Source: a virus
Lineage: Duplodnaviria > Caudoviricetes
Virus record (IMG/VR): IMGVR_UViG_3300037067_021792
Reading direction: 5' to 3' (one strand)
Length of the DNA stretch: 64,000 nucleotides
The translations under genes and the position numbers were made by a program. The notes under the pieces are model-generated. The model had not been told where the DNA came from, made no database searches, and saw only the letters and a program-made list of their open reading frames with translations. Below are positions 16,059-63,198 of the stretch, one piece after another. How positions within the stretch are numbered: the first letter of the stretch is position 1; every line of letters begins with the position of its first letter.

Positions 16059-16059
16059 T

Positions 16060-26212: not shown

Positions 26213-26895
26213 TTTTTACTCAGAAATGCAAAGAATTTATACCCGATTTCATAAAATGTTGCTGTGAAGGATCGAATAGAATTCCGTATGTTGAAAAAGG
26301 AATACTCAATATTGAAGCATTTTATTGGTGGTCTTTAATTGCTTTTTTTGAGCCAGATATTATTTTGGAATCCGGAGTGTCCAAAGGACGTAGCACAGAA
26401 ATTATTGCTAGGGCTCAGAAATACTATAATATTCCTAAACATTATGCTTTTGATATAGACAATAGACATGAAAGGTTTGTTCGACAAAAATTACGTCCAT
26501 ATCAGACAGTTTACTCCATTATGGACAGCACTGAGGGATTTAATGGAGTATTAAGCAAAGACTCCGGGACTACTGTGATTATTATGGATGGCCCCAAGTC
26601 ATCGTTGGGTATTAAATCTGTTTTTAGAATGCTGCATAAATTTAGCGATAGAATTTTGGCGGTAGGTTGTCACGATTGCGAACCGAATTCTAAAGTGCGA
26701 AATGCATTTGCTATTAATGCAAAAAAATTTATAATAAATAATGAATTGATATTTACAGAAATAGATCACAACTTTGATTTTTTAAACAATTATATTAAGG
26801 AAGATATTGCAAAATCCAAAAAATTATGTGAATTATTTGAAAAATCATATTTTGTAGGAATATCTTACCAAAAGGTACCAAAAGGTATAAAATGA
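26209..26895 (+). CDS. putative class I SAM-dependent methyltransferase
   Basis: IILESGVSKGRST, FDID, IMDGPK, CHD. Confidence 0.6.
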   Translation: MIFTQKCKEFIPDFIKCCCEGSNRIPYVEKGILNIEAFYWWSLIAFFEPDIILESGVSKGRSTEIIARAQKYYNIPKHYAFDIDNRHERFVRQKLRPYQTVYSIMDSTEGFNGVLSKDSGTTVIIMDGPKSSLGIKSVFRMLHKFSDRILAVGCHDCEPNSKVRNAFAINAKKFIINNELIFTEIDHNFDFLNNYIKEDIAKSKKLCELFEKSYFVGISYQKVPKGIK

Positions 26896-43289: not shown

Positions 43290-44631
43290 TAAGATGAATC
43301 TTCCCGGGCAGCCCCTGGTTGCGCCGATAGGGTTGCTCTATTTGGTATCCACTCTTAAAAAGAACAATATCTGCGTAAAAATTTTGGATCACAATGTAGA
43401 GAATATTAGTGTTAAAGAATGTCTCATGGACTTTGTTCCGGACTTAGTTGGGATCGGATGTTGTTTTTCTGGGCATATAACCGAAACTCTTGATAACGCA
43501 AGACAAGTAAAAGCTTACGCTAATGTTCCGGTTGTTATTGGGGGAATACATCCCACAATATACTATAAAGATATTATGAAAAACTGTCCAGAAATAGACT
43601 ATATAATATTGGGCGAGGGAGAAATATCCCTGCTAAAGTTATGTAACTACATTCAAAAAAATGATATAAATATAATTCAACAAATAAATGGGATAGTATA
43701 TCGCGCACATAACAACGATGTGGTGGTAAATACTAAGACTAAATATATCGAAAACGTATCCGATCTTCCCTGGCCAGACTATAAGTGTATTAACATTAAA
43801 AATTACTACTATGATACGTCCAATTGGCACAATCCTAAAAGGTTAAACATAAACACATCTTTACCGATAATATCAAGCAGAAGCTGCCCAATGCAATGTA
43901 ATTTCTGCTCTATGTATATATTAATGGGTAAAAAAATTAGAAAAAGGAATCCATATGATGTTGTCAATGAAATAGAATATTTATACAATGAATATGATCA
44001 TAGATATTTTTCCTTTTACGATGATAATGTTAATTTGGACAGGAGACATATCCTTACTATTTGCTCAGAAATAAAGAAGCGAAAATTAAATATTCAGTTT
44101 GATACACCCAATGGAGTTCACGTTAATAGTCTTGATGAAGAAGTGGTTGAAGCTTTGGTTTCTAGTGGCCTTGTCAGAGTGTCGTTGGCAATAGAACATG
44201 GGTCTGAGTATATTAGAAACAAGATAATGGGGAAAAATTTGAGTACAGAAAAAATATACAGCGTAGTAAACATGTGTAAAAAATATCATGATTTATATAT
44301 CAGGACATTTTTTATTATGGGCATGCCAGAGGATACGCGTGAAACACTGCAAAAAACATATGAAATGATAGAAATAATGGATATCGATAAACCCATAGTA
44401 ACAAATGTGGTTCCATTTCCTGGCACTAAATTGTTTGATCAATGTATTAGAGATAATATTATTGTAGGTGTTAATGTTGAAGATCTCTGGAGAAATCCAG
44501 ATGCGTATTTCACTGGAAATAAACAATTCTTTGTGAAACCATATAACATGACTATGGAAGAACTAATATTTTTTAGAAATAAATTTGATTTGCTGATAAG
44601 CCAAAAATTAGACAGGAGCAGAAATTTATGA
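43267..44631 (+). CDS. B12-binding radical SAM enzyme (class B methylase-like)
   Basis: PIGLLYL, GGIHPT, GEGE, SRSCPMQCNFC, FYDDN, IEHGS, PFPGT. Confidence 0.9.
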   Translation: MKVLLINNKMNLPGQPLVAPIGLLYLVSTLKKNNICVKILDHNVENISVKECLMDFVPDLVGIGCCFSGHITETLDNARQVKAYANVPVVIGGIHPTIYYKDIMKNCPEIDYIILGEGEISLLKLCNYIQKNDINIIQQINGIVYRAHNNDVVVNTKTKYIENVSDLPWPDYKCINIKNYYYDTSNWHNPKRLNINTSLPIISSRSCPMQCNFCSMYILMGKKIRKRNPYDVVNEIEYLYNEYDHRYFSFYDDNVNLDRRHILTICSEIKKRKLNIQFDTPNGVHVNSLDEEVVEALVSSGLVRVSLAIEHGSEYIRNKIMGKNLSTEKIYSVVNMCKKYHDLYIRTFFIMGMPEDTRETLQKTYEMIEIMDIDKPIVTNVVPFPGTKLFDQCIRDNIIVGVNVEDLWRNPDAYFTGNKQFFVKPYNMTMEELIFFRNKFDLLISQKLDRSRNL

Positions 44632-47844: not shown

Positions 47845-48772
47845 AATACTGGGTATTGTCTGCACATATGGATTTGTGGATATGACGAATGATGTCGTTG
47901 AAATGTTGGCATCATGGAAATCGCAAAAAGGAGACTATCAATTAGATGTCGTGGTTTCCGACAACAGATCTAGCGAACAATTTAGGAAAAAATTACATGA
48001 AATATGTAAGGACTATGGATATAAGTGTATACTGACCGATGGAGATTATACTGTTTTTATGACAATGAATCTTGCAATAAAAATATTTGCAAAAGAATAC
48101 GATTATACCATATTTTGTTCTGAGGACATTTTATTTACTACAAGCAATGATATTCAGTTGATGTTGAACGATTTTAATGACCCATCTATAGGATCAATTA
48201 CTACCAGATCTTCTAAAAAATTTATTCCAGATAAGTTCAATGAATACTATGGAGATAAATTTGGGATAACTCTCGATAAAAAAATTAGAGAGCACAACCC
48301 GTCTCCATATATTTTACTGATAAATGAGGTGGTATGCTTATGTATTTGTATGATGAAGAAGGATTTCTTGAAGATGTATAAATATAGGCTGATAGATAAA
48401 TTAGTACACTCTAATTTTGAGCAGCATTTCTTTTTGATGTTAATTGCAGTAGGCATGTCTTGTGGAGTGTGCACCAATACAAGTGTAGAGCACAGGAGTT
48501 TTCCTAAATCCTCGAAAATGGATAGGAAAAAATTTGGTAGCGTAGAAAAGAAAGATTATTGCAATATATTCGATTTGTTTCATCTTGGAAAGTCAATTGG
48601 ATATGGTTTTTCTACAAAAAATGATTTTGAAAAATACCTTCCAGATGAAAAAATGTATAAAAATAATAAACATTTAAATCCAAAAATACTACATAAATTT
48701 TTATTGGATAATCTATTTTTAAATGATAAAACATTTAGTTATGATTTAATTAAATATAAAATATTATGCTAA
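47837..48772 (+). CDS. putative GT2-like glycosyltransferase
   Basis: VVVSDNRS, MNLAI, FCSEDILF, VEH. Confidence 0.55.
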   Translation: MSKILGIVCTYGFVDMTNDVVEMLASWKSQKGDYQLDVVVSDNRSSEQFRKKLHEICKDYGYKCILTDGDYTVFMTMNLAIKIFAKEYDYTIFCSEDILFTTSNDIQLMLNDFNDPSIGSITTRSSKKFIPDKFNEYYGDKFGITLDKKIREHNPSPYILLINEVVCLCICMMKKDFLKMYKYRLIDKLVHSNFEQHFFLMLIAVGMSCGVCTNTSVEHRSFPKSSKMDRKKFGSVEKKDYCNIFDLFHLGKSIGYGFSTKNDFEKYLPDEKMYKNNKHLNPKILHKFLLDNLFLNDKTFSYDLIKYKILC

Positions 48773-50166
48773 ATATTATATTTGTCATAGATACCCTGAG
48801 CTACGCCGATCATATAGCAATTGCTTGTCTTTCTGCTGTAGCCAAGCAGAAAGGACACATGACTCATTTCTGTTTACTGTCAAATTCGGATCTGAGAACA
48901 CTAGTTTTGAAAATTAAGCCCGATATCGTGGCATATTCCGCTAATGTGTTAAGTTTTAAAAATATTGTCAAAAACCACAAAGATTCCATGTCTGCACACC
49001 AATTCATATCAATATTGGGTGGTCCTCAGGCTACATTTTTTCCGGAATCATTTAGCGAAAGTTGTGTTGATGCATATTGCGTCGGGGAGGGCGAAGAGGC
49101 TTTTGGGGAATTTTTAGATAGAGTTGAAAATAAGGAGTCCTTCGATGACGTTCTAAATCTTATAACAAATAAAAGGTCAAATCCAGTCCGGCCATTGATA
49201 TCGGATTTGGATTTGCTGCCTGCGTTGGACAGAGATTTGATTTTGTCGAATTCATTTTTGGGAAATGTATCAAAAAAGACGTTTTATGCGACGAGGGGAT
49301 GTCCATATGCATGCAGCTATTGTTGTAATAATTACTACCATGATTTATATCGACATAAAGGGAAGACCATTCGACGATTCTCTGTTGAAAGAGTAATCCA
49401 GGAAATAGAGCACGTTAAGAAAAATTATAAAACAGATTTTGTAAAATTTGGGGATGATATATTTGCCATAAGAGCAGACAACTGGATGAGGGAATTTGTG
49501 CAGAAATACAAATCCAGGATTGGACTACCGTTTAACTGTTATTTAAGATTTGATATAGTAACTGACGAACTTCTGACGATGCTCAGCGAAGCTGGATGCT
49601 ATTCTGTACATTTGTCCGTGGATAGCACGTCTCCATATGTTAGAGAACATGTTTTGAACCGGCGGATGAGAAAAAATGTTGATATTGAATATAATTTGTG
49701 CAAAATCCGGAGCCATAATATAAGAACGTGGGTTAACTATATGCTATCTGCACCAGAATCCACTATCCGAGACGATATAAATACTATTTTTATGAGCAAA
49801 AAAGGTAAAGTCACATATACCGCGTATTCGATAACTACTCCGATGAATGGAACAAAGCTGTATGAGGAATCTCTCAGAAAGGGATATATAGATAGTAATT
49901 TTGTAGGAGACATGACTGGGGGTAACGGTTTAACAGAATATTCTTCACCATCCTCTTTGAAGTGTTTTTCTCAAAGAGAGAAAGATATACAATATAATAT
50001 CTATTGTCTCGGTGCCATTGCCGCGAAACTGCCATACTCGCTGCTGTATATTTGCCTGGCCATAATTATACTAATTCCGCCAAATGTATTTTTTCTGAAG
50101 TTAAGAAATTTATACCACAAATTTATGGTAGAGAGATACATATTTAAAGTCGATGATCATCCATGA
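48766..50166 (+). CDS. B12-binding radical SAM enzyme
   Basis: GGPQATF, VGEGE, TRGCPYACSYC, FGDDIF. Confidence 0.88.
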   Translation: MLNIIFVIDTLSYADHIAIACLSAVAKQKGHMTHFCLLSNSDLRTLVLKIKPDIVAYSANVLSFKNIVKNHKDSMSAHQFISILGGPQATFFPESFSESCVDAYCVGEGEEAFGEFLDRVENKESFDDVLNLITNKRSNPVRPLISDLDLLPALDRDLILSNSFLGNVSKKTFYATRGCPYACSYCCNNYYHDLYRHKGKTIRRFSVERVIQEIEHVKKNYKTDFVKFGDDIFAIRADNWMREFVQKYKSRIGLPFNCYLRFDIVTDELLTMLSEAGCYSVHLSVDSTSPYVREHVLNRRMRKNVDIEYNLCKIRSHNIRTWVNYMLSAPESTIRDDINTIFMSKKGKVTYTAYSITTPMNGTKLYEESLRKGYIDSNFVGDMTGGNGLTEYSSPSSLKCFSQREKDIQYNIYCLGAIAAKLPYSLLYICLAIIILIPPNVFFLKLRNLYHKFMVERYIFKVDDHP

Positions 50167-51629: not shown

Positions 51630-52562
51630 ATGGTGCCCAAGGTAATTTATGTAATTCACAGCGGAATTGCAATTCCTTATTTAACATGTATGCTGACGTA
51701 TTTGCACCAAAATGGGAAAATAGATTTGCAACCTATTGGCCTAAAACAGTTTAATGGATTAAATAACATTCCGGAAGATGTGGTTATTATATATCAAACA
51801 TATGCGGACGAGAACCACCATAAATTTGTCAAATGTAAACAAATAATCGATAACACCGATGACATCATTATTAATCATAAAAAAACGATCATCTTTGACG
51901 CCCACGATAGCGGTAGCGTAGATGGATTCAGCAGATTACCAAAACTGCCTCGTATTAAAAATACTCCCAATATACTCAAAATGCAAGAATACAATATTAT
52001 ATCGTCAACAACTTTTCCACTTAAAACAAATATGTGTCCCAAAGATTGGCAAAAAATAGACTTACCCGAATCGGGGGAAAAAAGTATTGATATTTCTTAT
52101 AAGGTTGGTCTCATGGAGGGGTCGGAACATTCGTCAATGTATATCAGGCGCAAAGTACAAGACCTGCTAAACAATTATGTAGATGAAAATCAGGTTAGCA
52201 TGAGTTTGGGTTTTGATAAAAAGATTAGTTATAACCATCATATTGCACAAACAAAAATCTCAGTAAATGTCCCTGGATATGGAGAGGCATGTATAAGACA
52301 TTTAATAACATTGTGCTGTGGATCTTGCATGCTAGCACATGAATCAATCAATAATATAAAACTATTACCCGGGGCGAACTTGGTAGAAGGAGATGATTAT
52401 CTGTCATTTAATCTAGATAATTTCTGTGAGAAGCTGGATTACCTGATCTCAAATCCGCAAGAGATAAAAAGAATATCGGATAATGGTGTAAACAAGTTCA
52501 AAGAAGGATACTCAATAATTAATCCTTCAGAACTGCTGTTAAACTATATAAATGATATGTGA
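51630..52562 (+). CDS. putative GT-B glycosyltransferase
   Basis: KISVNVPGYGEACIRH..L.CGS, LVEGDDY, EKLDYLISNP...RISDNG. Confidence 0.65.
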   Translation: MVPKVIYVIHSGIAIPYLTCMLTYLHQNGKIDLQPIGLKQFNGLNNIPEDVVIIYQTYADENHHKFVKCKQIIDNTDDIIINHKKTIIFDAHDSGSVDGFSRLPKLPRIKNTPNILKMQEYNIISSTTFPLKTNMCPKDWQKIDLPESGEKSIDISYKVGLMEGSEHSSMYIRRKVQDLLNNYVDENQVSMSLGFDKKISYNHHIAQTKISVNVPGYGEACIRHLITLCCGSCMLAHESINNIKLLPGANLVEGDDYLSFNLDNFCEKLDYLISNPQEIKRISDNGVNKFKEGYSIINPSELLLNYINDM

Positions 52563-53401
52563 GAAACATGGATTCGATACCATTCGATAATATTATTTTT
52601 TTGTTGCAAAGGAGTATTGTTCCAAGGAAGCACGACCATATGTCTCCTGTAGAATATGCCTATGAATCTGGCATGTATATGGGTTGCCCCGGAAAGGAAT
52701 TGTATTTTAGTTTGCCTTCATTTTCTGTGGAGCAAATTGAGAAATTAATACCTATAGTTTGCATGTCTTTCCCTAAATTGCCACCTGGCAGATCGGTTCA
52801 TTTTTCTGTTTTTTGGAGATATTTTTATGGAGTATTTGATAAGCGAGGGGTATTTAACTCTAAACATAACCTGAACAATATTACTAGTAATTGGCCTATA
52901 TATTTTTCGTTTGTAGATAGTGTTATAGAACATTACAAATCTATGTCCTGCATTCATTTTGGACAGATAATTGCAACAGAAATGTTGGCCCACAGATTTG
53001 GAGACAAGTTTGTTCTGTCTGCGGATGTCGGGGAAAAAATAAAGCATAAAAAGCAAATGATTGAATGTTACGAAAATACATACAAATTAGCCATTCAAAT
53101 TAAAGCAAAAAAGAATGCTTTTAGCTCTTTATACTGGTGTTCCTCGTATTTGTTTGGCAACGATAACGCGTTGTATAAGACCTATGCCATACGATTTTTA
53201 CAAGCGGCAAATCAATTCGCAACAAGCGTGACTACGAAGGGCAAAGTTGTAAGTACGTTGAACAGATTAAATACGATTCTTTCTCGTAAAGAAATGAAAT
53301 CTGTATGTAAAATGTATAAAAATTTTGATAATAAGATAATGAAGTCTTTTGGCTTTCGAAAGCTTAATTTTGATAAGTCAACATTGGGAATTGGGGAATA
53401 A
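52559..53401 (+). CDS. helical-repeat (TPR-like) hypothetical protein (paralogue set E)
   Basis: YMGCPGKE.Y.SLP.F, GRSVH.S.FWRY.YG.FDK, EMLAHRFGD, KNAFSSLYW. Confidence 0.65.
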   Translation: MRNMDSIPFDNIIFLLQRSIVPRKHDHMSPVEYAYESGMYMGCPGKELYFSLPSFSVEQIEKLIPIVCMSFPKLPPGRSVHFSVFWRYFYGVFDKRGVFNSKHNLNNITSNWPIYFSFVDSVIEHYKSMSCIHFGQIIATEMLAHRFGDKFVLSADVGEKIKHKKQMIECYENTYKLAIQIKAKKNAFSSLYWCSSYLFGNDNALYKTYAIRFLQAANQFATSVTTKGKVVSTLNRLNTILSRKEMKSVCKMYKNFDNKIMKSFGFRKLNFDKSTLGIGE

Positions 53402-54076
53402 ATGTATAACAATTATATAGTAGAGAAAATAAAGGGTCGCTTGGTTTTTGACATAGGATCCAATAGAGGAACATTCTCCAGATCATACACCAAAGCAGGG
53501 GCAAAAGTAATTGCTGTAGAACCGATCAAATTTTTGATAGATCAAAATACAGAAAATTATATGAATGTAGTAGTAGAAAATATGTGCATATCCGATCATG
53601 ATGGATATGTATCTTTCTGTTGTAGCAAGAAGGACCCATCAATGTCCAGTTGTTGTCCAGAATGGAGACAAACTCATCGCAAGGCTAAGGGCAAATTAAT
53701 GGAGGTCAAATGTAACACTCTGGACTTTTTGATCAATAAGTATGGTGTTCCTGCATACATCAAGATAGACGTTGAAGGATACGAAAATGTTGTATTAAAG
53801 ACTCTAAAAACTGCGGCTGATATGATCAGTATAGAGTATACTGTGGGGTATCTTATTAATTTTACGGAATGTATGGATATATTTAAAAAACTGGGTTACC
53901 GGACATTTGTTATGGCCGAGCGAATTAATCAAAAAAAAGACGAGATACGATTTTATTTTAAATCCGTTGATGAGTGCATTCGACATTTTAAAGAGCATCC
54001 ATCAATTACATCTCGCGGTGATTTGTTGGCTATACTGGATGATATGGATATTTCTGTATTGGACAGCAAGTGGTAA
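53402..54076 (+). CDS. FkbM-family methyltransferase
   Basis: FDIGSNRG, VIAVEP, TLDFLI..YG.P.YIKIDVEGYE. Confidence 0.88.
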   Translation: MYNNYIVEKIKGRLVFDIGSNRGTFSRSYTKAGAKVIAVEPIKFLIDQNTENYMNVVVENMCISDHDGYVSFCCSKKDPSMSSCCPEWRQTHRKAKGKLMEVKCNTLDFLINKYGVPAYIKIDVEGYENVVLKTLKTAADMISIEYTVGYLINFTECMDIFKKLGYRTFVMAERINQKKDEIRFYFKSVDECIRHFKEHPSITSRGDLLAILDDMDISVLDSKW

Positions 54077-54079
54077 ATT

Positions 54080-54907
54080 ATGTTTCAGTTCGAACAAATA
54101 CACGAATTAATGAGCAGAGGCATAGTTTCTCGTAAGGGCGGAGATATTAATAAGACAACGCTATCTTCAATTGAATATGCCATTGATGGTGGAATCTATA
54201 TGGGTTGTCCTGGTAAAGAAATCTACTATTCGCTTCCGTTTTTTAATCTAGAGGAGAAAGATCAACTTATTGTTCTTATATTGAATGCATTTCCAATGGG
54301 CACAGGGCGATCTGTTCATTTGTCGTTATTCTGGAGATATCTCTATGGAATGTTTGATAAGTGGGGATGTCTAAATGACAGGGAAGACGTTCTGGGTAAA
54401 TTTAAAAATTCCCCTGTTGACTGGAGTCTATATTTTGATTTTGTCGAAAGGTTTTTATCTGCTGCCGAGGGCAAGAACCCGTATGCCTATATAATAGCGA
54501 GTGAAATGTATGCCCATCGTCTTGGTGACCAATACCTAATAAACCAGAAAAAGGTATATTTCAAACAGATGATAGAGATGTATGACAAGACTATATCTTT
54601 ATCAACACAATTATCTGTTGCAAAAAATAGTTTTAGTGCTCCTTATTGGTGTTGTATCTATTTATTCAAAATGAAAAAGTTTGATCAGTCTTATTATTAC
54701 GGAAATTTATTTTTAGACAATTGCAACAAGTATTGTCACAGTAAAGGGGCGTATAATAAGATGCGGTCTGCTGTTGGCGTGTTGTATCAAATTTCCACTC
54801 CAGAACAATGGGGGGAAATTCTTGAAAAGTGTAATAATTTTGACAACAGATTGGTTTATAAAATGTGGAAAAGAGCTTTTGAGTGCAAATCCCAATGGCA
54901 TCTGTAA
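54080..54907 (+). CDS. helical-repeat (TPR-like) hypothetical protein (paralogue set E)
   Basis: YMGCPGKE, GRSVHLSLFWRY, EMYAHRLGD, KNSFSAPYW. Confidence 0.65.
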   Translation: MFQFEQIHELMSRGIVSRKGGDINKTTLSSIEYAIDGGIYMGCPGKEIYYSLPFFNLEEKDQLIVLILNAFPMGTGRSVHLSLFWRYLYGMFDKWGCLNDREDVLGKFKNSPVDWSLYFDFVERFLSAAEGKNPYAYIIASEMYAHRLGDQYLINQKKVYFKQMIEMYDKTISLSTQLSVAKNSFSAPYWCCIYLFKMKKFDQSYYYGNLFLDNCNKYCHSKGAYNKMRSAVGVLYQISTPEQWGEILEKCNNFDNRLVYKMWKRAFECKSQWHL

Positions 54908-55596
54908 AAGAAAAAAGAAGCGAAATTGATAAACAGAGCAGAAAGATATCAGGATTAATGTCTGAACTGTCAATCCCGATAGACACATTTATAAATGACT
55001 TGCTTGATTTTTTAAATGAGGATAAATCCGGGCAAGAACCATATGCGATGTTGGTAAGAAATGCTTTTGGGGTTCAGAAAAATGGGTATGATGCCAATCC
55101 ATCCAAATGGTCTGCCCTTCTTCCTAGGATTGAAGAGATTCTGAGCATAGTTAATAACAAGGGTTCGATATTTGCAAAAATGATTTTTAATGAGAGCATG
55201 GGACATAGATACTCTGATTGCTGGTTTGAGACTAATGACCCAGCGTATGAAGCAAAGATGTCAAAATGCTATTTAGAAGGCTACAAACAATCTTGTAAAA
55301 TTAAATCATATAAAAACATTGATTCTACTATGTTTTGGCTCGCTGTGGCATACCATCGTATGGGAAGATTTGAAGAGGCAAGAAAATATTATAAAACGGT
55401 AGCCAATAGGGGAGGACCAAGATTTTTTAAATCAAGTTTTGTAAATAAGATATGGCTTTCGTTTATATATTCGCAAGATATGGTATGTCTTCCACCCTAC
55501 AAGGAAATTTCAAAAATTCTAGACAGAAAAAATCCATTGATACATCAACTATATATTGCTTTTAAGGCGGCATATGCCAACGGAATGATTGAATGA
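54883..55596 (+). CDS. TPR-like hypothetical protein (distant member of set E)
   Basis: ESMGHRYSD, KNIDSTMFWLAVAYHRMGRFEEARKYY. Confidence 0.6.
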   Translation: MQIPMASVKEKRSEIDKQSRKISGLMSELSIPIDTFINDLLDFLNEDKSGQEPYAMLVRNAFGVQKNGYDANPSKWSALLPRIEEILSIVNNKGSIFAKMIFNESMGHRYSDCWFETNDPAYEAKMSKCYLEGYKQSCKIKSYKNIDSTMFWLAVAYHRMGRFEEARKYYKTVANRGGPRFFKSSFVNKIWLSFIYSQDMVCLPPYKEISKILDRKNPLIHQLYIAFKAAYANGMIE

Positions 55597-55605: not shown

Positions 55606-56397
55606 ATGTATAAAAATGTGTTTGGTCCGGAACCTAAATATGAATTGTCGGTATCTCTCCAAAACAAATCTGCTCCTTCGTTTATCTGTATCGGTGGACC
55701 TTGTTCAATAGAAAGTTATGAACAGGTTATTCGGATATTTGATAGCATCGATAACAATGTGACCCATTTTCGAGGAGGAGTGTTTAGGGCCGGAACTTAT
55801 CCGGGCAAGAAATGGGGATGGCAATGGGACTTGTTAAAAATGTATCATGAAGAATCATTCAAAAGAGGGAAACCTAATATTGTGGATGTTTTAGATGTGA
55901 GGGACTTGGAAAAAATAGATCCCTACGCCGATGTGTTTCAGGTTGGAACTCGGCAAAGCCAGCATTATGCTCTTTTAAAAGAATTAGGAAAACAACAGAA
56001 GCCAATAGTGCTCAAACGCGGAACCCATCAAACATTAAATGAATTTATGGGGTCCTTAGAATATATATTACAAGGTGATAATTCCAATGTTATATTGTGT
56101 GAAAGGGGCAGCGTGTCATATTTGGATCATTCTAGATGGGAATTGTCCATTTCTATGATTGCCACGTTGAAACATATCACCAAATTCCCCATAATAGTAG
56201 ATAGCAGCCACGGCACAGGTAATCGCCAGATTGTTGGGCAAATGGCATATGCTGGTGTCGCGGCCGGGGCTGATGGAATACTGATTGAGACGCACTATTC
56301 GCCAAGTGACTCAATATCAGATTCGGAACAGTGCGTTTCATTGGATGAATTTAACGAAATATCTACTAACGCAAGGCGGATTAAGGATCTCCTATGA
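55606..56397 (+). CDS. divergent class I-beta DAHP synthase/KDO8P synthase family aldolase
   Basis: IGGPCSIES, FRGGVFRAGTYP, QVGTR, VLKRG, ILCERG, VDSSHGTG, GADGILIETH, SDSEQ. Confidence 0.88.
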   Translation: MYKNVFGPEPKYELSVSLQNKSAPSFICIGGPCSIESYEQVIRIFDSIDNNVTHFRGGVFRAGTYPGKKWGWQWDLLKMYHEESFKRGKPNIVDVLDVRDLEKIDPYADVFQVGTRQSQHYALLKELGKQQKPIVLKRGTHQTLNEFMGSLEYILQGDNSNVILCERGSVSYLDHSRWELSISMIATLKHITKFPIIVDSSHGTGNRQIVGQMAYAGVAAGADGILIETHYSPSDSISDSEQCVSLDEFNEISTNARRIKDLL

Positions 56398-57158
56398 ATG
56401 CCGGGATTATCATACTCTGTCGATTGCACTCCAAGAGACTTCCCAACAAAGCGCTGCTTCCACTGGGGAATTCCACCATAATAGATAAGTGTGTACTCAA
56501 TTGTCTAGAAAGTAATTCGGCACCGGTTATTGTTGCCACATCAACAAACTTTCAAGATGATGCTCTGGCTTCTCATATTTGTATGTTCCACAAAGATTGT
56601 GAGGTATTTCGAGGTTCTGAAATAGATGTTGCCCAGCGAATGCTAGATGCTGCTGATAAGTATGGTTGGGATACTATTGTCAGGGTTACAGGGGATTCCC
56701 CGTTCATTTCATTCGAGTTAATACGGCACCTGTTTCAGTGTGCACAAGTATTTGATTATATATACCTTACAAATGCTTGTTTGGGTACGAAACCAGAGAT
56801 TATGTCCGTTTCTGCTTTAAGAAAAATTATTTCAGAATTTGATTCATCTAAAAGTGAATACCTAACTTACTATTTTAAGAATAATCCCGATATGTTTCAT
56901 AGTATATCTATTGATACGCCGCAGGGTTTGTGCGGTGACTATAGGCTTAATGTTGATTATCCAGAAGACTACGAGCTAGCGAAATCTATATATAAATATG
57001 TAAGAAATGACAATCAGTGTGTGTCTCTACCCGAAGTTATAGAAATAGTAGAGAGATATAAATTGTATAATATAAACAAAAAATGCCATCCCCAGTACGT
57101 TTCGGGAAAATTATTTGATGAAATTATGGTTGCCACACAGAATCGGAGAGATAGATGA
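56394..57158 (+). CDS. SpsF/KdsB-like cytidylyltransferase
   Basis: CRLHSKRLPNKAL, VATS, FRGSEIDV, VRVTGDSPF, RLNVDYPEDY. Confidence 0.85.
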   Translation: MNAGIIILCRLHSKRLPNKALLPLGNSTIIDKCVLNCLESNSAPVIVATSTNFQDDALASHICMFHKDCEVFRGSEIDVAQRMLDAADKYGWDTIVRVTGDSPFISFELIRHLFQCAQVFDYIYLTNACLGTKPEIMSVSALRKIISEFDSSKSEYLTYYFKNNPDMFHSISIDTPQGLCGDYRLNVDYPEDYELAKSIYKYVRNDNQCVSLPEVIEIVERYKLYNINKKCHPQYVSGKLFDEIMVATQNRRDR

Positions 57159-58057
57159 GAATTAAGATAGAGTGCCCAACTTATTTTTTTGAGCATAATC
57201 TATGCGGGCATGCTATTGACAATGAGGATCCAGAAATAATGATATCTGATCCTGGATCATCGTACAAATACAATGAATCATATCTATCGAAATTTAGTAA
57301 TTTGAAAATACTGGCTACTCCATCTACTGGTGTTACCCATATAGATTTAGATTACTGCAGAAGAATGCAGATACCAGTTTTGAATTTACTAAGTAATAGG
57401 AAGCTATTAAATGAAATTTCTGCCTCCGCGGAATTCACCTGGCTTCATATATTGAATGCAGTAAGAAGATTTTCCGAATCTATTGAGGAAGTGAAAACTG
57501 GCAATTGGAGAAACAAGGAAAACGATCTGAGAGGACGAGAAATGAGGTACTTGTCTCTTGGTATCGTAGGGTTTGGTCGCATCGGTGGTAAGATATCATC
57601 ATTTGCGTCAGCTTTTGGAATGGAGAAAGTTTTTTACTATGATCCATACGTAGAATCGAATAAATGCACTAGAGTTTTACGTTTAGAACAAATATTTGGC
57701 TGTGATATTATTTTAATAAGTCCGTATTTGACAGATGAAACTAAAAATATGATAAGTAGCGATTTGATAAAGATATGTCGGAGGGGTTCTATTATAGTAA
57801 ACACATCGAGGGGGGAAGTAGTAGATGAAGATGCAATATGCGATGCGGTTGAATTGGGACAAATATATTACTGTGCCGATGTTGTTAAAGATGAACAAAA
57901 CATGAATAGATTTTTTCAATCTAGGCTATATCGGCTTTTAATGGAGGGAAAAGTGTGTATAACTCCCCACATTGCTGGAGCCACTGTTGAATCACAGCAA
58001 AAAGCCTTTGACGCAATCATGCTGATCATACAATCGCATTTAGGTCGAGAAAGATGA
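57155..58057 (+). CDS. D-isomer-specific 2-hydroxyacid dehydrogenase
   Basis: STGVTHID, AEFT, GFGRIG, YYDP, VNTSRGEVVDE, TPHIAG. Confidence 0.9.
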   Translation: MRIKIECPTYFFEHNLCGHAIDNEDPEIMISDPGSSYKYNESYLSKFSNLKILATPSTGVTHIDLDYCRRMQIPVLNLLSNRKLLNEISASAEFTWLHILNAVRRFSESIEEVKTGNWRNKENDLRGREMRYLSLGIVGFGRIGGKISSFASAFGMEKVFYYDPYVESNKCTRVLRLEQIFGCDIILISPYLTDETKNMISSDLIKICRRGSIIVNTSRGEVVDEDAICDAVELGQIYYCADVVKDEQNMNRFFQSRLYRLLMEGKVCITPHIAGATVESQQKAFDAIMLIIQSHLGRER

Positions 58058-58779
58058 ATAGAAATCTTGTTAAAAATAAAGAAATTAAAGATTTTTTTGA
58101 TGGGAAAATTGTATTTGATGTAGGGGCCGGTATGGGTCTGACTACTAAGATATTTACATCTTTAGGGTCAAAGGTAATTGCTGATACGTGCTATCCTGCT
58201 AAATATGGTCAGAATTTTTCTGATGCCATTCTGATAAATACCTATATATCGGATCATGATGGAGGAGAAGACCAATACATAAGTAATGCACCATTGGGAT
58301 ATCATCAGATGCCCAGCAAAACATTGGATACCCTAATTGTTGAATATGGAACTCCTATTTATATTAAAATTAGCACTGATGGATATGAAGATGTAGTTTT
58401 ACGAGGTTTAACTCATGCAGTTGGATGCATCAGTGCGGGGTATACAAAAGGGCGTAAAGATTGTTTTTGGGGAGTGTTGCGGTCGATAGAGAGACTGCAG
58501 TATAAAAAATTCATAATGGTTAATTGCGGGAAGGATATAGGAGGAAAATTTACCATAGGGTATCTACCGCCGAATATAAGTTATTGTAGAAAATTATTTA
58601 AGGAAATGCACTTAAATAAACATTATAGAGGGGATTTATTTGCATTCAACCCAGAAATTTTTCCAGAAAATGTAGCCATATTGTTGAGCGATTATTATAG
58701 TGGAAGAAAAGTTACTAACGCAAAAAAGAATATGGTTAACTACTCTAGTCTAAAGACCCGAAGATTATTAACAGTTTAG
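58054..58779 (+). CDS. FkbM-like methyltransferase (degenerate paralogue of 53402..54076)
   Basis: FDVGAGMG, ISDHDG, TLDTLI..YG.P.YIKISTDGYE, RGDL. Confidence 0.7.
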   Translation: MNRNLVKNKEIKDFFDGKIVFDVGAGMGLTTKIFTSLGSKVIADTCYPAKYGQNFSDAILINTYISDHDGGEDQYISNAPLGYHQMPSKTLDTLIVEYGTPIYIKISTDGYEDVVLRGLTHAVGCISAGYTKGRKDCFWGVLRSIERLQYKKFIMVNCGKDIGGKFTIGYLPPNISYCRKLFKEMHLNKHYRGDLFAFNPEIFPENVAILLSDYYSGRKVTNAKKNMVNYSSLKTRRLLTV

Positions 58780-58787
58780 GTGAAATT

Positions 58788-59804
58788 ATGTCATACAGTC
58801 CCTTTAGAGAAGGTTATTTTCCAATCAATAAAACTGGTTCTCCATTAAGTGGAGATGAGTTATATAAACAATATCGAGAACAGTATGAAAAATGGCCCAA
58901 AGAGCAAAAGCTAGGGGATTTTCCAACTCATCTTGATTTAGAGTTATCGAGCGCTTGTAATTTACATTGTCCAATGTGCCACACTGTTTATATTGGAGAT
59001 CCATCATTTAAAAAATATAAAGAGCAACGAATGAAAGATGCTTTAATGGATTTCTCTGTGTATCGGAAAGCCATTAATGAAGCTGTTAACTATGAGCATT
59101 TTTTTTCAATCAAATTAAACTATAGAGGAGAAAGCACTTTACATCCGGATATTGTAGAGATGATACAATATGCCAAAAACAAGGGCGTATATGATATTAT
59201 GCTAAATTCAAATGGGAACCATGACTTTGATTTGATAGAAAAAATGGTCGATGCTGGATTAACATGGTTGTCGATATCTTTAGATGCGATTAATCCGGAG
59301 ACATATAAAAAAATCAGAGCTGGAGGAGACTTCTTCATCGCATATGCTAATGCTATTAGCATGTGTAGATTTAGCGGAAAATTAAATTTGCAAGTTTCTT
59401 TCGTTCACCAGAAGAAAAATGATGCAGAAAAAGATGAATTTATAAAATTTTGGAACAAGATGCCCATAAATAAAATAACGATTGGAGATTTCTACAATCC
59501 AGCTGAATTCATCACTAATATATCAGCGTTTGAAGTTAAACAATATCACAAAATGCAGAAATTTACATGCCCGCAGTTATGGCAGAGAATTTTGATAATG
59601 TGTGATGGGAAAATATTCCCCTGTTGTCACGCATTTGATGAGCCAGATGATTTATATTTAGGAAGATTTCCTGAGACATCTATCAAAGAGGCTTGGGATT
59701 CGGAAAAATTGAAGAAAATTAGAGAGATTCATATTTCTGGGGATTACTCTGAAATTAAAACATGCTCAACATGTGCTTATCCTAAAACATCGAAGGATGA
59801 ATAA
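58788..59804 (+). CDS. radical SAM/SPASM (twitch) domain protein
   Basis: CNLHCPMC, RGES.LHP, CPQLW...DGKIFPCC, CSTC. Confidence 0.9.
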   Translation: MSYSPFREGYFPINKTGSPLSGDELYKQYREQYEKWPKEQKLGDFPTHLDLELSSACNLHCPMCHTVYIGDPSFKKYKEQRMKDALMDFSVYRKAINEAVNYEHFFSIKLNYRGESTLHPDIVEMIQYAKNKGVYDIMLNSNGNHDFDLIEKMVDAGLTWLSISLDAINPETYKKIRAGGDFFIAYANAISMCRFSGKLNLQVSFVHQKKNDAEKDEFIKFWNKMPINKITIGDFYNPAEFITNISAFEVKQYHKMQKFTCPQLWQRILIMCDGKIFPCCHAFDEPDDLYLGRFPETSIKEAWDSEKLKKIREIHISGDYSEIKTCSTCAYPKTSKDE

Positions 59805-60472
59805 TGTTACCAGATGTGAGTGTTGTAATTACATGTTATAATTATGGAAGGTATCTAGAGAGATGCCTGCGAAGTGTTTATAATCAAGAGCACACCAAAC
59901 GATTTTCTTATGAAATTATTATTGTAAATGATTGTAGCATAGATAATACCGAATCCATTATAAGACAGTTTGAAAGTAAGTTCGATAATTTAATATACAT
60001 ATATAATATTAAAAATCAGGGAATTTCCCGATCTTGCAATAGTGCAATTCAATCTAGTAATGGAAGATATATTGTTCGAATAGATGCCGATGATTATGTA
60101 TCAAGACACTTCTTATTTTTGTTGAAATTTGCACTGGATAAAAATAGAAGATATCAGGCTTTTTGTTGTGATTATATAGAAGTGGACGATTTTGAAAATA
60201 ACCTACGATTTGTTTCTCCAACCGAAGAGCAAATTGCCTGTGCGGTGATGTATAGAAAAGAATATATGATAGATGTTGGATTATATGATGAAGAATTTGA
60301 ATATCGGGAAGGGCATGAATTAAATAAGAGGTTTCGAGACAAGTATGAAATAGGACATCTTCCTATTCCTTTGTATTTTGCCAGGAAACATGATAATAAT
60401 CGATCTGGAAATATCGAAAAAATATCTGAGTATGATCAAAAATTGTCCCTAGATAAACAGGAGAACCCATGA
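59804..60472 (+). CDS. GT2-family glycosyltransferase
   Basis: SVVITCYN, IVNDCSID, NQGIS, RIDADD, VGLYDE. Confidence 0.92.
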   Translation: MLPDVSVVITCYNYGRYLERCLRSVYNQEHTKRFSYEIIIVNDCSIDNTESIIRQFESKFDNLIYIYNIKNQGISRSCNSAIQSSNGRYIVRIDADDYVSRHFLFLLKFALDKNRRYQAFCCDYIEVDDFENNLRFVSPTEEQIACAVMYRKEYMIDVGLYDEEFEYREGHELNKRFRDKYEIGHLPIPLYFARKHDNNRSGNIEKISEYDQKLSLDKQENP

Positions 60473-61458
60473 AAGCTATTGTTACTGGTGGATGCGGTTT
60501 TATTGGATTTAATTTGTGTAAAAAATTAATTGAAACAGAATATAGCAATATTCAGGTTATCGATGATTTATCAACAGGATTTAGGCAAAACAAAATAAAT
60601 GGGGTAGATTACCACTATATCTCTATTCTTAATCACGATTTCAAGAATATAATTCATGCATTTAAGCCGGACGTAATTTTTCATATAGCAGCAGTTCCAC
60701 GAGTTTCTTATTCTGTTGAATTTCCAGTTGAAACACTGAAGGCCAATGTTCTTGCTACGGTTGAAGTTTTAGATGCTGTGCGGACCACAAAGAAAAAGCA
60801 GGCTAGAGTCATATTTAGCTCTAGCAGCTCAGTATATGGTGGGGCCGATCATTTGCCAACCCCCGAATCTTGTCCAAGAAACCCCAAATCGCCATATGCT
60901 CTCGAAAAAGCCGAGAGTGAAATGTGGTTATCTATGTACGCGTCTCTATACGGAGTAGATGCTGTAAGTCTTCGCTATTTTAATGTCTTTGGTCCGCGCT
61001 CTAGGTGGGGCGGAGGATACTCGACTGTTTTGAGCGCTTGGCTATATTCGTTGTATATAGATAAAAAAATAGTTCCATATTTAGAGGGAGACGGAAAACA
61101 ATCGAGAGATTTTTGCTACGTAGATAACGTGGTTCAGGCCAATATTTTTGCTGCAAGACATTCCAACAAATTTGCCGGTGAAGTTTATAATATAGCTCAG
61201 GGCGAAAGGCATTCATTACTGGAGTGTAAAGAAATTATAGAAAAAATCTCTGGTCAAGCACTAAATTTAGAATATAAACCAGCGCGAATTGGCGATGTAG
61301 ATCATACATTAGCAGATATATCAGCAGCCAGAAGGGATTTGGGGTATAATCCATCGGTTGATTTTGAATCTCAAGTAAAAGAAATGGCTGATTGGTATAA
61401 GGGAGAATATACCCGTGAAGTCTCCGCTGGCAAAACTATTACTTCTGTATTACAATAA
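60469..61458 (+). CDS. NAD-dependent epimerase (UDP-hexose/HexNAc 4-epimerase-like)
   Basis: TGGCGFIG, DDLSTG, SSSSVYG, SPYALEK, RYFNVFGP, GDGKQSRDF. Confidence 0.92.
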   Translation: MKAIVTGGCGFIGFNLCKKLIETEYSNIQVIDDLSTGFRQNKINGVDYHYISILNHDFKNIIHAFKPDVIFHIAAVPRVSYSVEFPVETLKANVLATVEVLDAVRTTKKKQARVIFSSSSSVYGGADHLPTPESCPRNPKSPYALEKAESEMWLSMYASLYGVDAVSLRYFNVFGPRSRWGGGYSTVLSAWLYSLYIDKKIVPYLEGDGKQSRDFCYVDNVVQANIFAARHSNKFAGEVYNIAQGERHSLLECKEIIEKISGQALNLEYKPARIGDVDHTLADISAARRDLGYNPSVDFESQVKEMADWYKGEYTREVSAGKTITSVLQ

Positions 61459-62398
61459 AGTAACAAATGAAGCATTTAACAAACTTGCTCTGCATAATCA
61501 CGAATTTGAAATAATTCCATTTAACCTCGGGCAATTCGGGGATAAAATGGATATTTTAGACGAAAAAACAGTAGAAAAAATCCTCTTACAATATATGCCC
61601 TTCGATGCTGCCGTTGTCGGGGATGTATTTTGGCCAACGGGACAATATATTTGCAAATGGTGCAGAAAGCATGGCGTTAAAAGCTTTTTTTTGCAACATG
61701 GGCAGTGGATTTATGTTACTAATAAGAAGAACCCAGAATTTTTACCCAATTGCACGTTTCTATACGGTGATAACGTAAAAGACATGGTGAGTTTATGGCC
61801 CTACTCTGCTCGATCAAAAGTCGCGGTTACGGGCAGCCCCAAATATGACAATATCATTCCAAATCCGTCGGGGTCATATGTTTATTTCTGTCCACCAGTT
61901 ATGTACGAAAAAGTTAATGGCACTCATCGTAGCAATCCATTATCTTCAAGGTTATTAAGAACTTTGTCGGGTATAGATAAAAAAGTAGAATTACTAATTC
62001 AACCGCATTATCGAGAGGATAATATTTCTGGATTAAAACAGATATTTAGTGCTGCAGAATTCTCTGATCCTAAAAATGATCCAATTTGTCTCATCAAAAA
62101 ATCATACGCAGTGTTAACTCACCGTGATTCTACAACTGTGCTCGATGCTATCGCGTGTGGTAAAAAATCTTTTTTGATCAATTTTAAAAACCAGTATAGA
62201 TCATTTTACAAAACTGGGTATTTCGGCGATTTTGCAGTAGAGAATGGATGGCCAGATGAGTGCAAAGAACGGATACAGACTTATGTAGCAGGTGAATTGC
62301 CTGATAATTATGAAATACTATCTAAGCCATACTTATATTTGGGAAATTCATCTGAAAAAATATTTGCCGTCATGAAGGAGTTACTAAATGTCTCATAG
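61415..62398 (+). CDS. GT-B fold transferase (TagF/sialyltransferase-like), candidate ulosonate transferase
   Basis: FFLQHG, VTGSPKYD, QPHYRE, DSTTVLDA..CGK. Confidence 0.55.
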   Translation: MKSPLAKLLLLYYNKVTNEAFNKLALHNHEFEIIPFNLGQFGDKMDILDEKTVEKILLQYMPFDAAVVGDVFWPTGQYICKWCRKHGVKSFFLQHGQWIYVTNKKNPEFLPNCTFLYGDNVKDMVSLWPYSARSKVAVTGSPKYDNIIPNPSGSYVYFCPPVMYEKVNGTHRSNPLSSRLLRTLSGIDKKVELLIQPHYREDNISGLKQIFSAAEFSDPKNDPICLIKKSYAVLTHRDSTTVLDAIACGKKSFLINFKNQYRSFYKTGYFGDFAVENGWPDECKERIQTYVAGELPDNYEILSKPYLYLGNSSEKIFAVMKELLNVS

Positions 62399-62657
62399 GG
62401 TAACTATAATGTGTGATAGCTGTGGTCAGGAATACTTATTGCCACCAGAAATGGAACTTCCGCCATATTGGATGGCAATCCAGATAGCTGTTTCAAATAA
62501 GGATGGCGAAATACCAATTGATGTCACAGATATAATGACTCATATTTGTAGCCAAGAATGTTTGAAAGATTTTGCAACAGGCGATATAATAAAAAGTAGG
62601 ATTGCGTTGATAGATAAGCTATCAGATGATGAGATAGAGGATGAACATGATATCTAA
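62388..62657 (+). CDS. small zinc-binding hypothetical protein
   Basis: CDSCG ... HICSQEC. Confidence 0.6.
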   Translation: MSHRVTIMCDSCGQEYLLPPEMELPPYWMAIQIAVSNKDGEIPIDVTDIMTHICSQECLKDFATGDIIKSRIALIDKLSDDEIEDEHDI

Positions 62658-63198
62658 AGAAATCTGGCAACAACTTGCCAATTATTTTCGAAGTAAGCTC
62701 GTAGCAAAAATTGATGTTGGGCAACTATTTGTGCACAATTCTATGCTACAACAGTCTCTTGAAATTCCGCACAAAGGTTTTTATGTTGGCGTGATCGACA
62801 GCGTGGGTAATCAGATTATTCGGGAAGGATTCTTATCAGAAAATTTGACCAATGTGATGAATAGCGCTGACATTGTTTTGGAAAATATTTATGGAAATTT
62901 AATTAACAACGGAGTTACTGTTTCCAAGCTTCAAACAAGTACTTTTTATTTCTACATCATAAATGATGTAGTCTATTTGGCAAATCCTATGGCATGGGAT
63001 GATAAACAGGATGGGGTTTATTTTCAGTGGGGCCAGAATTACAAGTCAATGTTTTTGCCGTATCAAGTTAAATTGATGAATATGCCCAAAACGGATATTT
63101 TGGACAGATTATGTGCTTCGTCTGGCACGGTATCTAATCTTTGGAAATTACCGGAGGGGTTAATATTTGCACTTAAAAATGAATCTCACAGCACATAG
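62641..63198 (+). CDS. divergent AMMECR1-domain protein (AmmeMemoRadiSam protein A-like)
   Basis: GFYV, DGVYFQWG..KSMFLP.QV, ILDRLC..SG...LW; canonical LRGCIG replaced by IREGF. Confidence 0.65.
   Translation: MNMISKEIWQQLANYFRSKLVAKIDVGQLFVHNSMLQQSLEIPHKGFYVGVIDSVGNQIIREGFLSENLTNVMNSADIVLENIYGNLINNGVTVSKLQTSTFYFYIINDVVYLANPMAWDDKQDGVYFQWGQNYKSMFLPYQVKLMNMPKTDILDRLCASSGTVSNLWKLPEGLIFALKNESHST

Follow-up and report, generated by a model that had tools for sequence, protein, structure and literature searches.

A DAH7PS-fold synthase with a rewritten aldose loop in a conserved phage gene kit, probably for a CMP-activated acidic sugar

Introduction

The Kdo pathway pairs KdsA, a phosphoenolpyruvate (PEP) aldolase of the DAHP_synth_1 superfamily, with KdsB, a cytidylyltransferase of the CTP_transf_3 family. 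The nonulosonic acid systems of bacteria, for instance in flagellin glycosylation islands, have a PEP-using synthase (NeuB, PseI, or LegI), an enzyme of CMP activation (NeuA, PseF, or LegF), and transfer with Maf (DUF115) or other transferases, often to proteins. In textbooks, the DAH7PS/KDO8PS family of synthases exemplifies two fixed substrate specificities, whose determinants have long been debated, and the lysine of the KPRT loop is catalytically important in these enzymes. The family would be extended by a third natural clade that is well populated and has its aldose loop rewritten. Here, we describe such a clade starting from one of its members, the product of the open reading frame (ORF) at 55606-56397 in a 64,000-nucleotide stretch of Caudoviricetes DNA (IMG/VR record IMGVR_UViG_3300037067_021792), hereafter called the window.

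We think it probable that this synthase and the genes that follow it (ORFs 55606-60472) are the giant-phage form of a conserved phage gene set, the kit, that would make an acidic (CMP-ulosonic) sugar and attach it to a virion protein. The analysis adds the description of this giant-phage form, a fusion of cytidylyltransferase and dehydrogenase, the near-absence of the synthase clade from cellular genomes, the residue switches that define the clade, and the displacement of a NeuB-type synthase.

Results

The synthase keeps the metal and PEP sites and has lost the E4P loop

The synthase matches Pfam DAHP_synth_1 with 1.3e-41 (142.7 bits, cut-off 25.5). Its residues 21-252 align to the DAH7PS of P. 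furiosus (1ZCO) with an E-value of 1.4e-52 and 38% identity, and in this alignment the segment RGGAFKPRTSPY of 1ZCO corresponds to RGGVFRAGTYPG in the ORF. The KPRTS loop thus reads RAGTY (K60/P61/R62/T63/S64 become R61/A62/G63/T64/Y65), and the KANRS loop of KdsA is not present either. The metal ligands C33, H202, E228, and D239 are retained, both in this alignment and in that of the clade described below, and so are the PEP-site residues R56, Q112, R116, K137, R138, and R167. A first-pass annotation, made from the sequence alone, had described an enzyme resembling type I-beta DAH7PS with its aldose loop changed to RAGTY and with no shikimate genes nearby. The first of these statements is borne out by the alignment to 1ZCO, in which the metal and PEP sites are kept and the loop for erythrose 4-phosphate (E4P) is replaced, and the second by a Pfam search over nearly all long ORFs of the window, which found no shikimate-pathway gene.

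The AlphaFold2 (AF2) model of the synthase has a mean confidence (pLDDT) of 93.4. Its best fold matches are the type I-beta DAH7PS 1VS1, 1ZCO, and 1RZM, with template modelling (TM) scores of 0.84-0.89 and 34-38% identity, followed by KDO8PS (TM ~0.80, 20-21% identity). An ESM Atlas look-up again returns the DAH7PS label, and public annotations call its relatives "3-deoxy-7-phosphoheptulonate synthase". Its scores nevertheless lie under the NCBIfam equivalog cut-offs for DAH7PS (TIGR01361, 225.1 against 267.75; NF006421, 245.8 against 335), under those for KDO8PS (NF003543, 78.8 against 242; TIGR01362, 71.4 against 314), and under that for PseI (23.3 against 340). The Pfam NeuB match reaches only 29.9 bits, beneath the 142.7-bit match to DAHP_synth_1, and no SAF domain was found with Pfam. 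We dropped a phosphonate reading, suggested by a faint match to PEP_mutase (E 0.0064), because the DAHP_synth_1 match is overwhelming and there are no phosphonate genes.

The synthase belongs to a monophyletic and essentially viral clade

A search of 5.8 billion clustered proteins showed that all of the 120 best homologues of the synthase (44-76% identity) carry x-x-G-T-[YF]-P at the loop, and hence that the change did not arise by chance in a single sequence. We aligned 253 sequences, 165 with G-T in place of R-T and 88 ordinary KPRT enzymes. Glycine replaces the arginine in 165/165 members of the first group, whose loop follows the pattern [R/S/I/V]xGTYP. Four switches separate it throughout from the KPRT enzymes (R63G, S65Y, D181S, A236S), and the "RTF" segment of the latter is missing; the synthase also has a conserved FGW segment. 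The position of the KPRT lysine (61), invariant in 88/88 ordinary enzymes, is occupied by R, S, I, V, F, or Y. The metal and PEP residues are common to both groups. A single branch of the FastTree phylogeny, with a support of 1.0 and a length of 0.78, splits the 165 sequences from the 88, so that they form a monophyletic clade, which we call xGTYP.

This clade is essentially viral, with almost all of its members on viral or metagenome contigs. We scanned for GGVFRAGTYP with an exact degenerate DNA pattern, which matches 19 contigs of IMG/VR; across 185,579 prokaryote species genomes (one per species, 596 Gb), it matches four stretches on three contigs of metagenome-assembled genomes (MAGs), 31-64 kb long. 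We identified 47 IMG/VR loci that carry a clade member, 18 of them on contigs of 41-48 kb that look like a lineage of complete small phage genomes, and further members lie on contigs of 100-650 kb. The closest relative (73% identity) is an IMG/VR contig (L081). Among the cultured phages of INPHARED there is no clade member, the matches being ordinary DAH7PS or KdsA with at most 40% identity, and PHROGs has no family dedicated to the clade. Among the matches listed in a profile search of genome contigs, 80 loci hold only ordinary DAH7PS of the KPRT type, and these have no common neighbours.

The synthase heads a chain of coupled genes

The genes of the chain (Table 1) are tightly packed on the + strand. 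ATGA overlaps join the synthase to the cytidylyltransferase (56394-56397), the cytidylyltransferase to the dehydrogenase (57155-58), and the dehydrogenase to the next ORF (58054-57); the coupling of the first three genes had been reported in the first-pass annotation and is confirmed. The chain then continues across a gap of 8 nucleotides between 58054-58779 and 58788-59804, a TAATG junction between the radical S-adenosylmethionine (SAM) enzyme and the family 2 glycosyltransferase (GT2), and an ATGA junction between the GT2 and the epimerase.

The cytidylyltransferase scores 81.7 bits against CTP_transf_3 (cut-off 22.6) and also matches the MobA-like Pfam family NTP_transf_3. Its nearest named families are sub-families of KdsB, at about 1e-13 and 48.8 bits against cut-offs of 193-281, and it reaches the cut-off of no characterised equivalog (KdsB, PseF, and the like). 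In the PDB, the best match is 6OEW, named "Cytidylyltransferase" (1.2e-20), followed by KdsB entries; the alignment with 6OEW shows that the CTP loop R..S.R.P.K (CRLHSKRLPNK) and the GD(E/S)P motif (VTGDSP) are kept. The dehydrogenase, aligned with the D-lactate dehydrogenase 3KB6, has the GFGRIGG motif, the arginine of NTSRG, and the histidine of TPHIAG, and its catalytic glutamate is placed without certainty. It has an intact NAD site together with the catalytic arginine and histidine, and it scores under the cut-off for all NCBIfam equivalogs. The following ORF, 58054-58779, matches the FkbM gene of a related giant phage (L153; phmmer 4e-13) and sits where other kits hold a Methyltransf_23 gene.

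The radical SAM enzyme is the best-conserved protein of the kit, with 59-71% identity in giant-phage relatives and 53% to a protein of a Nitrospirae MAG. The three cysteines of its cluster motif CX3CX2C (CNLHCPMC; C57, C61, C64) and the four of the C-terminal SPASM domain (C261, C279, C326, C329) are invariant. In a fold search with its AF2 model (pLDDT 89.5), BlsE and BtrN come first and peptide-modifying SPASM enzymes next, all with TM scores of 0.55-0.61 and 14-18% identity; sugar-acting and peptide-acting relatives score alike. It also matches the NCBIfam "spiro-SPASM protein" model TIGR04321 (7.6e-24). The GT2 has 222 residues, matches 6P61, a PDB entry named "Glycosyltransferase" (3e-43), and conserves the DDCS and DADD motifs. 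Its nearest matches in PHROGs are GtrB-like O-antigen conversion families, with a match limited to the first ~96 positions of a GtrB-like model that has 309.

A radical SAM enzyme, a cytidylyltransferase, and a GT2 are the constant partners

We compared the neighbourhoods of the 22 viral loci in which each flank of the synthase extends for 4 kb or more with those of 61 ordinary KPRT DAH7PS loci. The radical SAM enzyme is present in 22/22 viral loci and in none of the 61 KPRT loci, the cytidylyltransferase in 20/22 and 1/61, and the GT2 in 20/22 and 0/61, respectively. The dehydrogenase was found in neither set (0/22 and 0/61). The pathway proposed in the first-pass annotation is therefore upheld in part: the synthase is not an ordinary DAH7PS, and the survey confirms that its homologues are linked to cytidylyltransferases, but the dehydrogenase is not a core partner. 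That annotation had also overlooked the constant partners, namely the radical SAM enzyme, the GT2, and the methyltransferase. It had assigned the transfer of the sugar to the product of 61415..62398 or to a DUF115 protein. The GT2 is the likelier candidate, given its fusion to the cytidylyltransferase; homologues of 61415-62398 were found in giant-phage relatives only, and the two DUF115/MptE-like genes of the window adjoin a separate NeuB module (2632-7014).

Gene order was derived from the clustered ORFs of the 47 viral loci. In small phages it runs from a tail-fibre-like Gly_rich_2 gene through the radical SAM/SPASM gene, the cytidylyltransferase and the GT2, a small protein, and the DAHPS-like synthase to a Methyltransf_23 gene, often with tetratricopeptide (TPR) repeats, after which come lysis or packaging genes. 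The cytidylyltransferase and the GT2 form a single fused protein, with the GT2 behind, in ~27 viral loci and are adjacent genes in ~16. The surroundings are those of late genes: the kit lies between the Gly_rich_2 gene and a lysozyme gene in one locus (L085, where the five-gene kit occupies 6646-12104), adjoins Mu-type portal genes in another (L122), and in a marine group (L112) comes after an SU10-type adaptor gene, with an MptE-like gene (DUF115, Maf-type) 5 kb further on. Two small conserved phage proteins, f5 (~124 aa) and f19 (with a predicted membrane helix), match no Pfam family. Homologues of 60469-61458 and of 61415-62398 were not found in the small-phage kits.

The giant-phage relatives (L081, L149-L154, L157) again hold the quartet of radical SAM enzyme, synthase, cytidylyltransferase, and GT2. 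In two of them, L151 (554 aa) and L152 (550 aa), the cytidylyltransferase and the 2-Hacid_dh dehydrogenase are fused; none of the 22 complete small-phage loci has the dehydrogenase, and neither do L081, L149, L153, L154, and L157. Given these fusions, the dehydrogenase is a real component that is specific to one giant-phage sub-clade, and its link is to the cytidylyltransferase step rather than to the synthase. A fragment of a haloacid dehalogenase (HAD) is fused to the radical SAM enzyme in L157.

Bacterial kits have a NeuB-type synthase at the same place

Orthologues of the kit also occur in bacteria. A 255-kb Nitrospirae MAG contig (L158, whose radical SAM homologue has 53% identity) and a 62-kb contig (L179) share the order cytidylyltransferase, radical SAM enzyme, fusion of NeuB, SAF, and cytidylyltransferase, fusion of GT2 and cytidylyltransferase, second NeuB, and ABC transporter, with a Methyltransf_23 gene near the kit. 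The radical SAM orthologue of these kits matches with an E-value of 3.9e-125, and in L158 the cytidylyltransferase (3e-31), the GT2 (7e-31), and Methyltransf_23 (1.5e-27) also match the phage proteins. Two marine capsule-type loci (L159, L180) contain Methyltransf_23, the radical SAM enzyme, a GmhA-like isomerase, the cytidylyltransferase, and a NeuB without SAF domain. The bacterial kits lie in polysaccharide loci with ABC transporters and Capsule_synth and Glyphos_transf genes. Since their NeuB proteins score far under the NeuB/PseI cut-offs (220 against 400), the bacterial pathway itself seems to be uncharacterised.

The presence of a NeuB-type synthase in one set of loci and of a DAH7PS-fold synthase in the other, within otherwise orthologous kits, is a non-orthologous displacement. 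Because the bacterial kit has a NeuB-type enzyme at this place, the phage enzyme would be the ulosonic-acid synthase of the pathway, and we regard the displacement as the strongest evidence for this role obtainable without bench work. The spiro-SPASM model is in line with this role: in L158 and L179, the cytidylyltransferase domains align with its positions 1-226, and the radical SAM enzyme of the window aligns with its positions 223-502, which suggests that the model reflects a natural fusion of the two.

A trio of GT2, GNAT acetyltransferase, and cytidylyltransferase genes was seen among housekeeping genes at 9001-10999 in two Bacteroidia MAGs (L155, L156). It resembles the kit in its GT2 (E 4e-51) and cytidylyltransferase (1.4e-13) and has no synthase within 9 kb.

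Other genes of the window and of its relatives

Table 1. Features of the window, with the kit and its flanks first and the separate ulosonic-acid module last.
Feature	Position	Strand	Evidence or remark
DAH7PS-fold PEP-condensing synthase, xGTYP clade ("DAHPS-like")	55606..56397	+	263 aa; Pfam DAHP_synth_1
SpsF/KdsB-like cytidylyltransferase, hub of the kit	56394..57158	+	Pfam CTP_transf_3 8.9e-23
D-2-hydroxyacid dehydrogenase	57155..58057	+	Pfam 2-Hacid_dh_C 5.7e-38
Divergent FkbM-like methyltransferase (probable)	58054..58779	+	NCBIfam fkbM_fam 2e-05, under cut-off
Radical SAM/SPASM enzyme	58788..59804	+	Pfam Radical_SAM 55.4 bits, SPASM 46.9 bits
Small soluble glycosyltransferase of family GT2 (GT-A), which probably uses the activated sugar	59804..60472	+	Glycos_transf_2 2.5e-28
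SDR epimerase/dehydratase	60469..61458	+	Pfam Epimerase 1.6e-53; kit membership uncertain
Conserved ORF, no Pfam family	61415..62398	+	Faint BFO_1060 glycosyltransferase match 1.9e-05 (NCBIfam); kit membership uncertain
Accessory block upstream of the synthase: three paralogous proteins and an FkbM methyltransferase	52559..55596	+
Second ulosonic-acid module	2632-7014		Separate from the kit
MptE-like/DUF115 (Maf-type) genes	2632-3384, 4156-4884
PseF-like cytidylyltransferase	4881-5615
SAF-less NeuB	5603-6496
KDN-9-P/KdsC-type HAD phosphatase	6496-7014

The accessory block contains a Methyltransf_21 domain (Pfam) at 53402-54076, and its three paralogous proteins match no Pfam or PHROG family. 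Homologues of these proteins lie directly beside the synthase in L151 (10786-11574) and L152 (6287-7991) and near it in L153 (4129-4962, 5989-6954); hhalign gave no sign of a relation between this family and the small-phage families f4 and f5. The module at 2632-7014 looks like a Kdn-type pathway with protein-glycosylating transferases.

A trio of genes (61415-63198 in the window) encodes proteins of ~320 aa, 87-89 aa, and ~185 aa, the last weakly AMMECR1-like, and recurs in L081, L151, and L157. In three cases (the window, L081, and L157) it is downstream of the kit, one to five genes from the GT2, and the homologue of 61415-62398 stands 2-4 kb past the GT2 in both relatives. In L151 it comes directly after the inverted radical SAM gene, which places the homologue of 61415-62398 directly upstream of the inverted pair of radical SAM and GT2 genes.

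The window also holds two TnpB/IS605 OrfB-like genes (OrfB_IS605 with Cas12f1-like TNB; 7299-8516 on the + strand and 39884-41092 on the - strand), one of which is embedded in the glycan island, where it runs on the opposite strand beside a minus-strand GT2 (41150-41884). A short-chain dehydrogenase/reductase (SDR) of the GDP-mannose-dehydratase type (28612-30705) is split by an intein that carries a LAGLIDADG domain, and in a related giant-phage contig Thy1 contains an intein (L153, 13114-14787). A homologue of ketopantoate hydroxymethyltransferase (PanB; 26892-27833, 1.7e-90) is surrounded by glycan genes and has a PfkB kinase and a methyltransferase as neighbours, which is an unusual setting for this enzyme. 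At 31601-36969, there are three consecutive thiamine-diphosphate enzyme systems (E1 alpha/beta-like, an acetolactate-synthase-like TPP enzyme, and a split transketolase), followed by an aldo-keto reductase, and B12-binding radical SAM enzymes occur at 43135-44631 and 48766-50166; together, the thiamine-diphosphate and B12 radical SAM genes suggest branched-chain or C-methylated sugars. The flanks of the island (722-2632, 10906-16488) are not glycan-related and encode a UvrD helicase, adenylosuccinate synthetase, a D12-class adenine DNA methyltransferase, and an Ogg-type DNA glycosylase, with a further radical SAM gene at 14744-15694.

Discussion

A candidate pathway for a CMP-ulosonic acid

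The best reading of the kit, and a well-supported one, is that it would make a CMP-activated ulosonic acid, because of the linkage to the cytidylyltransferase (20/22) and the fusions of the latter to the GT2, the dehydrogenase, and NeuB. The sugar is most likely an undescribed one of the sialic acid or Kdo kind. In the pathway that we propose, the DAH7PS-fold enzyme, with the metal and PEP half kept and the E4P loop lost, would condense PEP with another aldose into a 3-deoxy-2-ulosonic acid, which the KdsB/SpsF-like cytidylyltransferase, judging from its family and fusions, would activate with CTP to give a CMP-sugar. The radical SAM/SPASM enzyme and the methyltransferase may tailor the sugar or its precursor, and the small GT2, the likeliest transferase because it is fused to the cytidylyltransferase, would pass it to the acceptor. 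The phage of the window and two relatives would add a redox tailoring or supply step bound to that of the cytidylyltransferase; as a guess, the dehydrogenase could either provide an acyl substituent or carry out a reduction or oxidation at the sugar's 2-oxo/2-hydroxy-acid end. An unphosphorylated or otherwise non-standard aldose is plausible, and here the evidence pulls both ways: the phosphate-binding arginine is lost, and yet there is a HAD fragment in L157 and a GmhA-like isomerase in bacterial kits. That this phage uses CMP-ulosonic acids at all is evident from the other module of the window, in which NeuB, a phosphatase, and a cytidylyltransferase accompany two Maf-like genes.

The acceptor is the weakest link of the scheme. 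It would most likely be a virion protein, since the kits lie in late or structural operons, with no annotated gene for a flippase, polymerase, or membrane protein in their vicinity; the TPR methyltransferase and the Maf-like genes also favour it. A bolder version of this scheme, which we hold as possible rather than probable, has a DAH7PS-fold enzyme, recruited almost only in phages, replacing NeuB in an undescribed, radical-SAM-dependent pathway for a methylated ulosonic (possibly nonulosonic) acid, with which phages of ~40 to >250 kb would glycosylate their own tail or head proteins. The pathway would also exist in bacteria, with Nitrospirae and marine capsule-type loci as carriers and spirochaetes as a lead only.

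Several points weigh against a CMP-ulosonic acid kit. The KPRT lysine is not conserved in the xGTYP clade, so that the mechanism may differ from that of the classical DAH7PS and KDO8PS. To our knowledge, GT2 is not among the families that use CMP-sugars (GT29/30/38/42/52/80/99/107, Maf). The small-phage kits encode neither an enzyme making an unusual aldose nor a phosphatase. If a dehydrogenase acted on the ulosonic C2, the anomeric centre required for a CMP-glycoside would be lost. Finally, the presumed phage nature of the replicon rests on IMG/VR relatives.

Alternative explanations

The same activated sugar might instead remodel the host envelope (lipopolysaccharide, capsule, or teichoic acid), for example for superinfection exclusion or release. 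We consider this rather unlikely, and still a serious rival on the question of the acceptor: it agrees with the polysaccharide context of the bacterial kits, with their ABC transporters and Capsule_synth and Glyphos_transf genes, with the GtrB-like O-antigen conversion families nearest to the GT2, and with the kdsA/kdsB genes of the cyanophage S-SCSM2R, which the authors read as host cell-wall modification (PMC12801897). However, the annotation of the phage loci, which covered Pfam families and not transmembrane segments, includes no flippase, polymerase, or lipid-carrier family, and the 222-residue GT2 is too short for the C-terminal membrane part of GtrB. The position of the kits in late structural operons and the TPR repeats of the methyltransferase, of a kind that usually binds proteins, also fit a virion acceptor better. 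If the enzyme were an ordinary DAH7PS, it would serve as an auxiliary metabolic gene that boosts the supply of aromatic amino acids, and its best family and fold matches (DAH7PS I-beta) and public annotations do point that way; the clade-wide loss of KPRT, the scores under the equivalog cut-offs, the lack of shikimate genes, and the constant partnership with a cytidylyltransferase, a radical SAM enzyme, and a GT2 make this extremely improbable and close to refuted. DNA hypermodification was rejected as unlikely, the kits being in structural or lysis regions and not in those of nucleotide metabolism.

Two further alternatives retain the enzymes and change the product. CDP-ribitol is made by a reductase fused to a cytidylyltransferase (Bcs1/TarIJ), and the kit might similarly produce, from a reduced 2-keto acid or an activated phosphate ester, a CDP-linked acid or polyol-phosphate donor, not a CMP-glycoside. 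The fusion of cytidylyltransferase and 2-Hacid_dh in L151 and L152 recalls such enzymes, the cytidylyltransferase also matches the MobA-like NTP_transf_3, and the kit holds no known family of CMP-sugar transferases. We find this explanation improbable, as most kits lack the dehydrogenase, the nearest named relatives of the cytidylyltransferase are KdsB, its bacterial counterpart is fused to NeuB, and the synthase loop has lost the phosphate-binding arginine. The other alternative has PEP condensed with an aldehyde that the radical SAM enzyme makes on a larger molecule (a nucleoside, a nucleotide-sugar, or a protein side chain), giving a high-carbon nucleoside-like or C-C-linked product. It would account for the radical SAM enzyme being the most conserved and most constant partner, for the absence of an aldose-forming enzyme from the small kits, and for the variable position of the catalytic lysine. 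Among the near folds, BlsE and BtrN oxidise or decarboxylate sugar substrates and anSME makes a protein aldehyde, although these fold matches are weak (TM 0.55-0.61, 14-18% identity). It leaves the fusions of the cytidylyltransferase with NeuB or GT2 unexplained, and the GmhA-like isomerase of the bacterial kits suggests an ordinary sugar-phosphate substrate; we judge it very improbable.

Significance

With the xGTYP clade, nature offers an experiment on the long-debated determinants of specificity in DAH7PS and KDO8PS enzymes. A radical SAM/SPASM enzyme accompanies it constantly in phages and is also part of the orthologous kits of bacterial polysaccharide loci, and this pairing suggests an acidic sugar with an undescribed biosynthesis. 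If the acceptor is a virion protein, the kit would be a widespread, self-contained phage system for sugar-coating particles, with a bearing on receptor binding, on the immune recognition of therapeutic phages, and on environmental stability. If, moreover, the DAH7PS-fold enzyme replaces NeuB as proposed, the kit would combine a new sugar, a new specificity in the DAH7PS/KDO8PS family, and a new virion decoration. With four to five genes, it is small enough for direct reconstitution. Our literature search, which had subscription journals outside its range so that absence is not proven, found no paper on the xGTYP clade, none on the bacterial radical SAM version or on radical SAM enzymes in ulosonic acid pathways, and none citing the PDB entries 6OEW or 6P61.

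Comparison with known systems

The best sequence matches of the kit cytidylyltransferase, GT2, and radical SAM enzyme (the unpublished PDB entries 6OEW and 6P61, and TIGR04321) have no function attached to them; the first two are presumably Leptospira proteins. Among the described systems, the Kdo pathway has the same pairing of a DAHP_synth_1-superfamily PEP aldolase and a CTP_transf_3 cytidylyltransferase, and a phage precedent exists in the canonical kdsA/kdsB pair of the Synechococcus phage S-SCSM2R (PMC12801897). The KdsA of this phage is only ~25% identical to the synthase of the window, which has 20-21% identity to KDO8PS and lacks KANRS. The kit has neither an arabinose 5-phosphate isomerase nor KdsC, and it adds an obligatory radical SAM enzyme, a GT2, and a methyltransferase. 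With the type I-beta DAH7PS (1ZCO, 1VS1 of A. pernix, 1RZM of T. maritima), the synthase shares the fold, the Cys/His/Glu/Asp metal site, and the PEP site, and its clade differs from them by the replaced KPR(T/S) loop for E4P, a glycan-related context, and viral carriers. The bacterial nonulosonic acid pathways have a similar sequence of a PEP synthase, CMP activation, and transfer, often to proteins, and an MptE-like gene accompanies the kit in marine phages, as in the systems linked to Maf. Unlike these pathways, the kit has a synthase of another family, no hexosamine-forming genes, and an additional radical SAM enzyme. It would thus work like the Kdo and nonulosonic acid pathways and yet belongs to neither, because the defining substrate loops and equivalog scores fail and an obligatory radical SAM enzyme is added.

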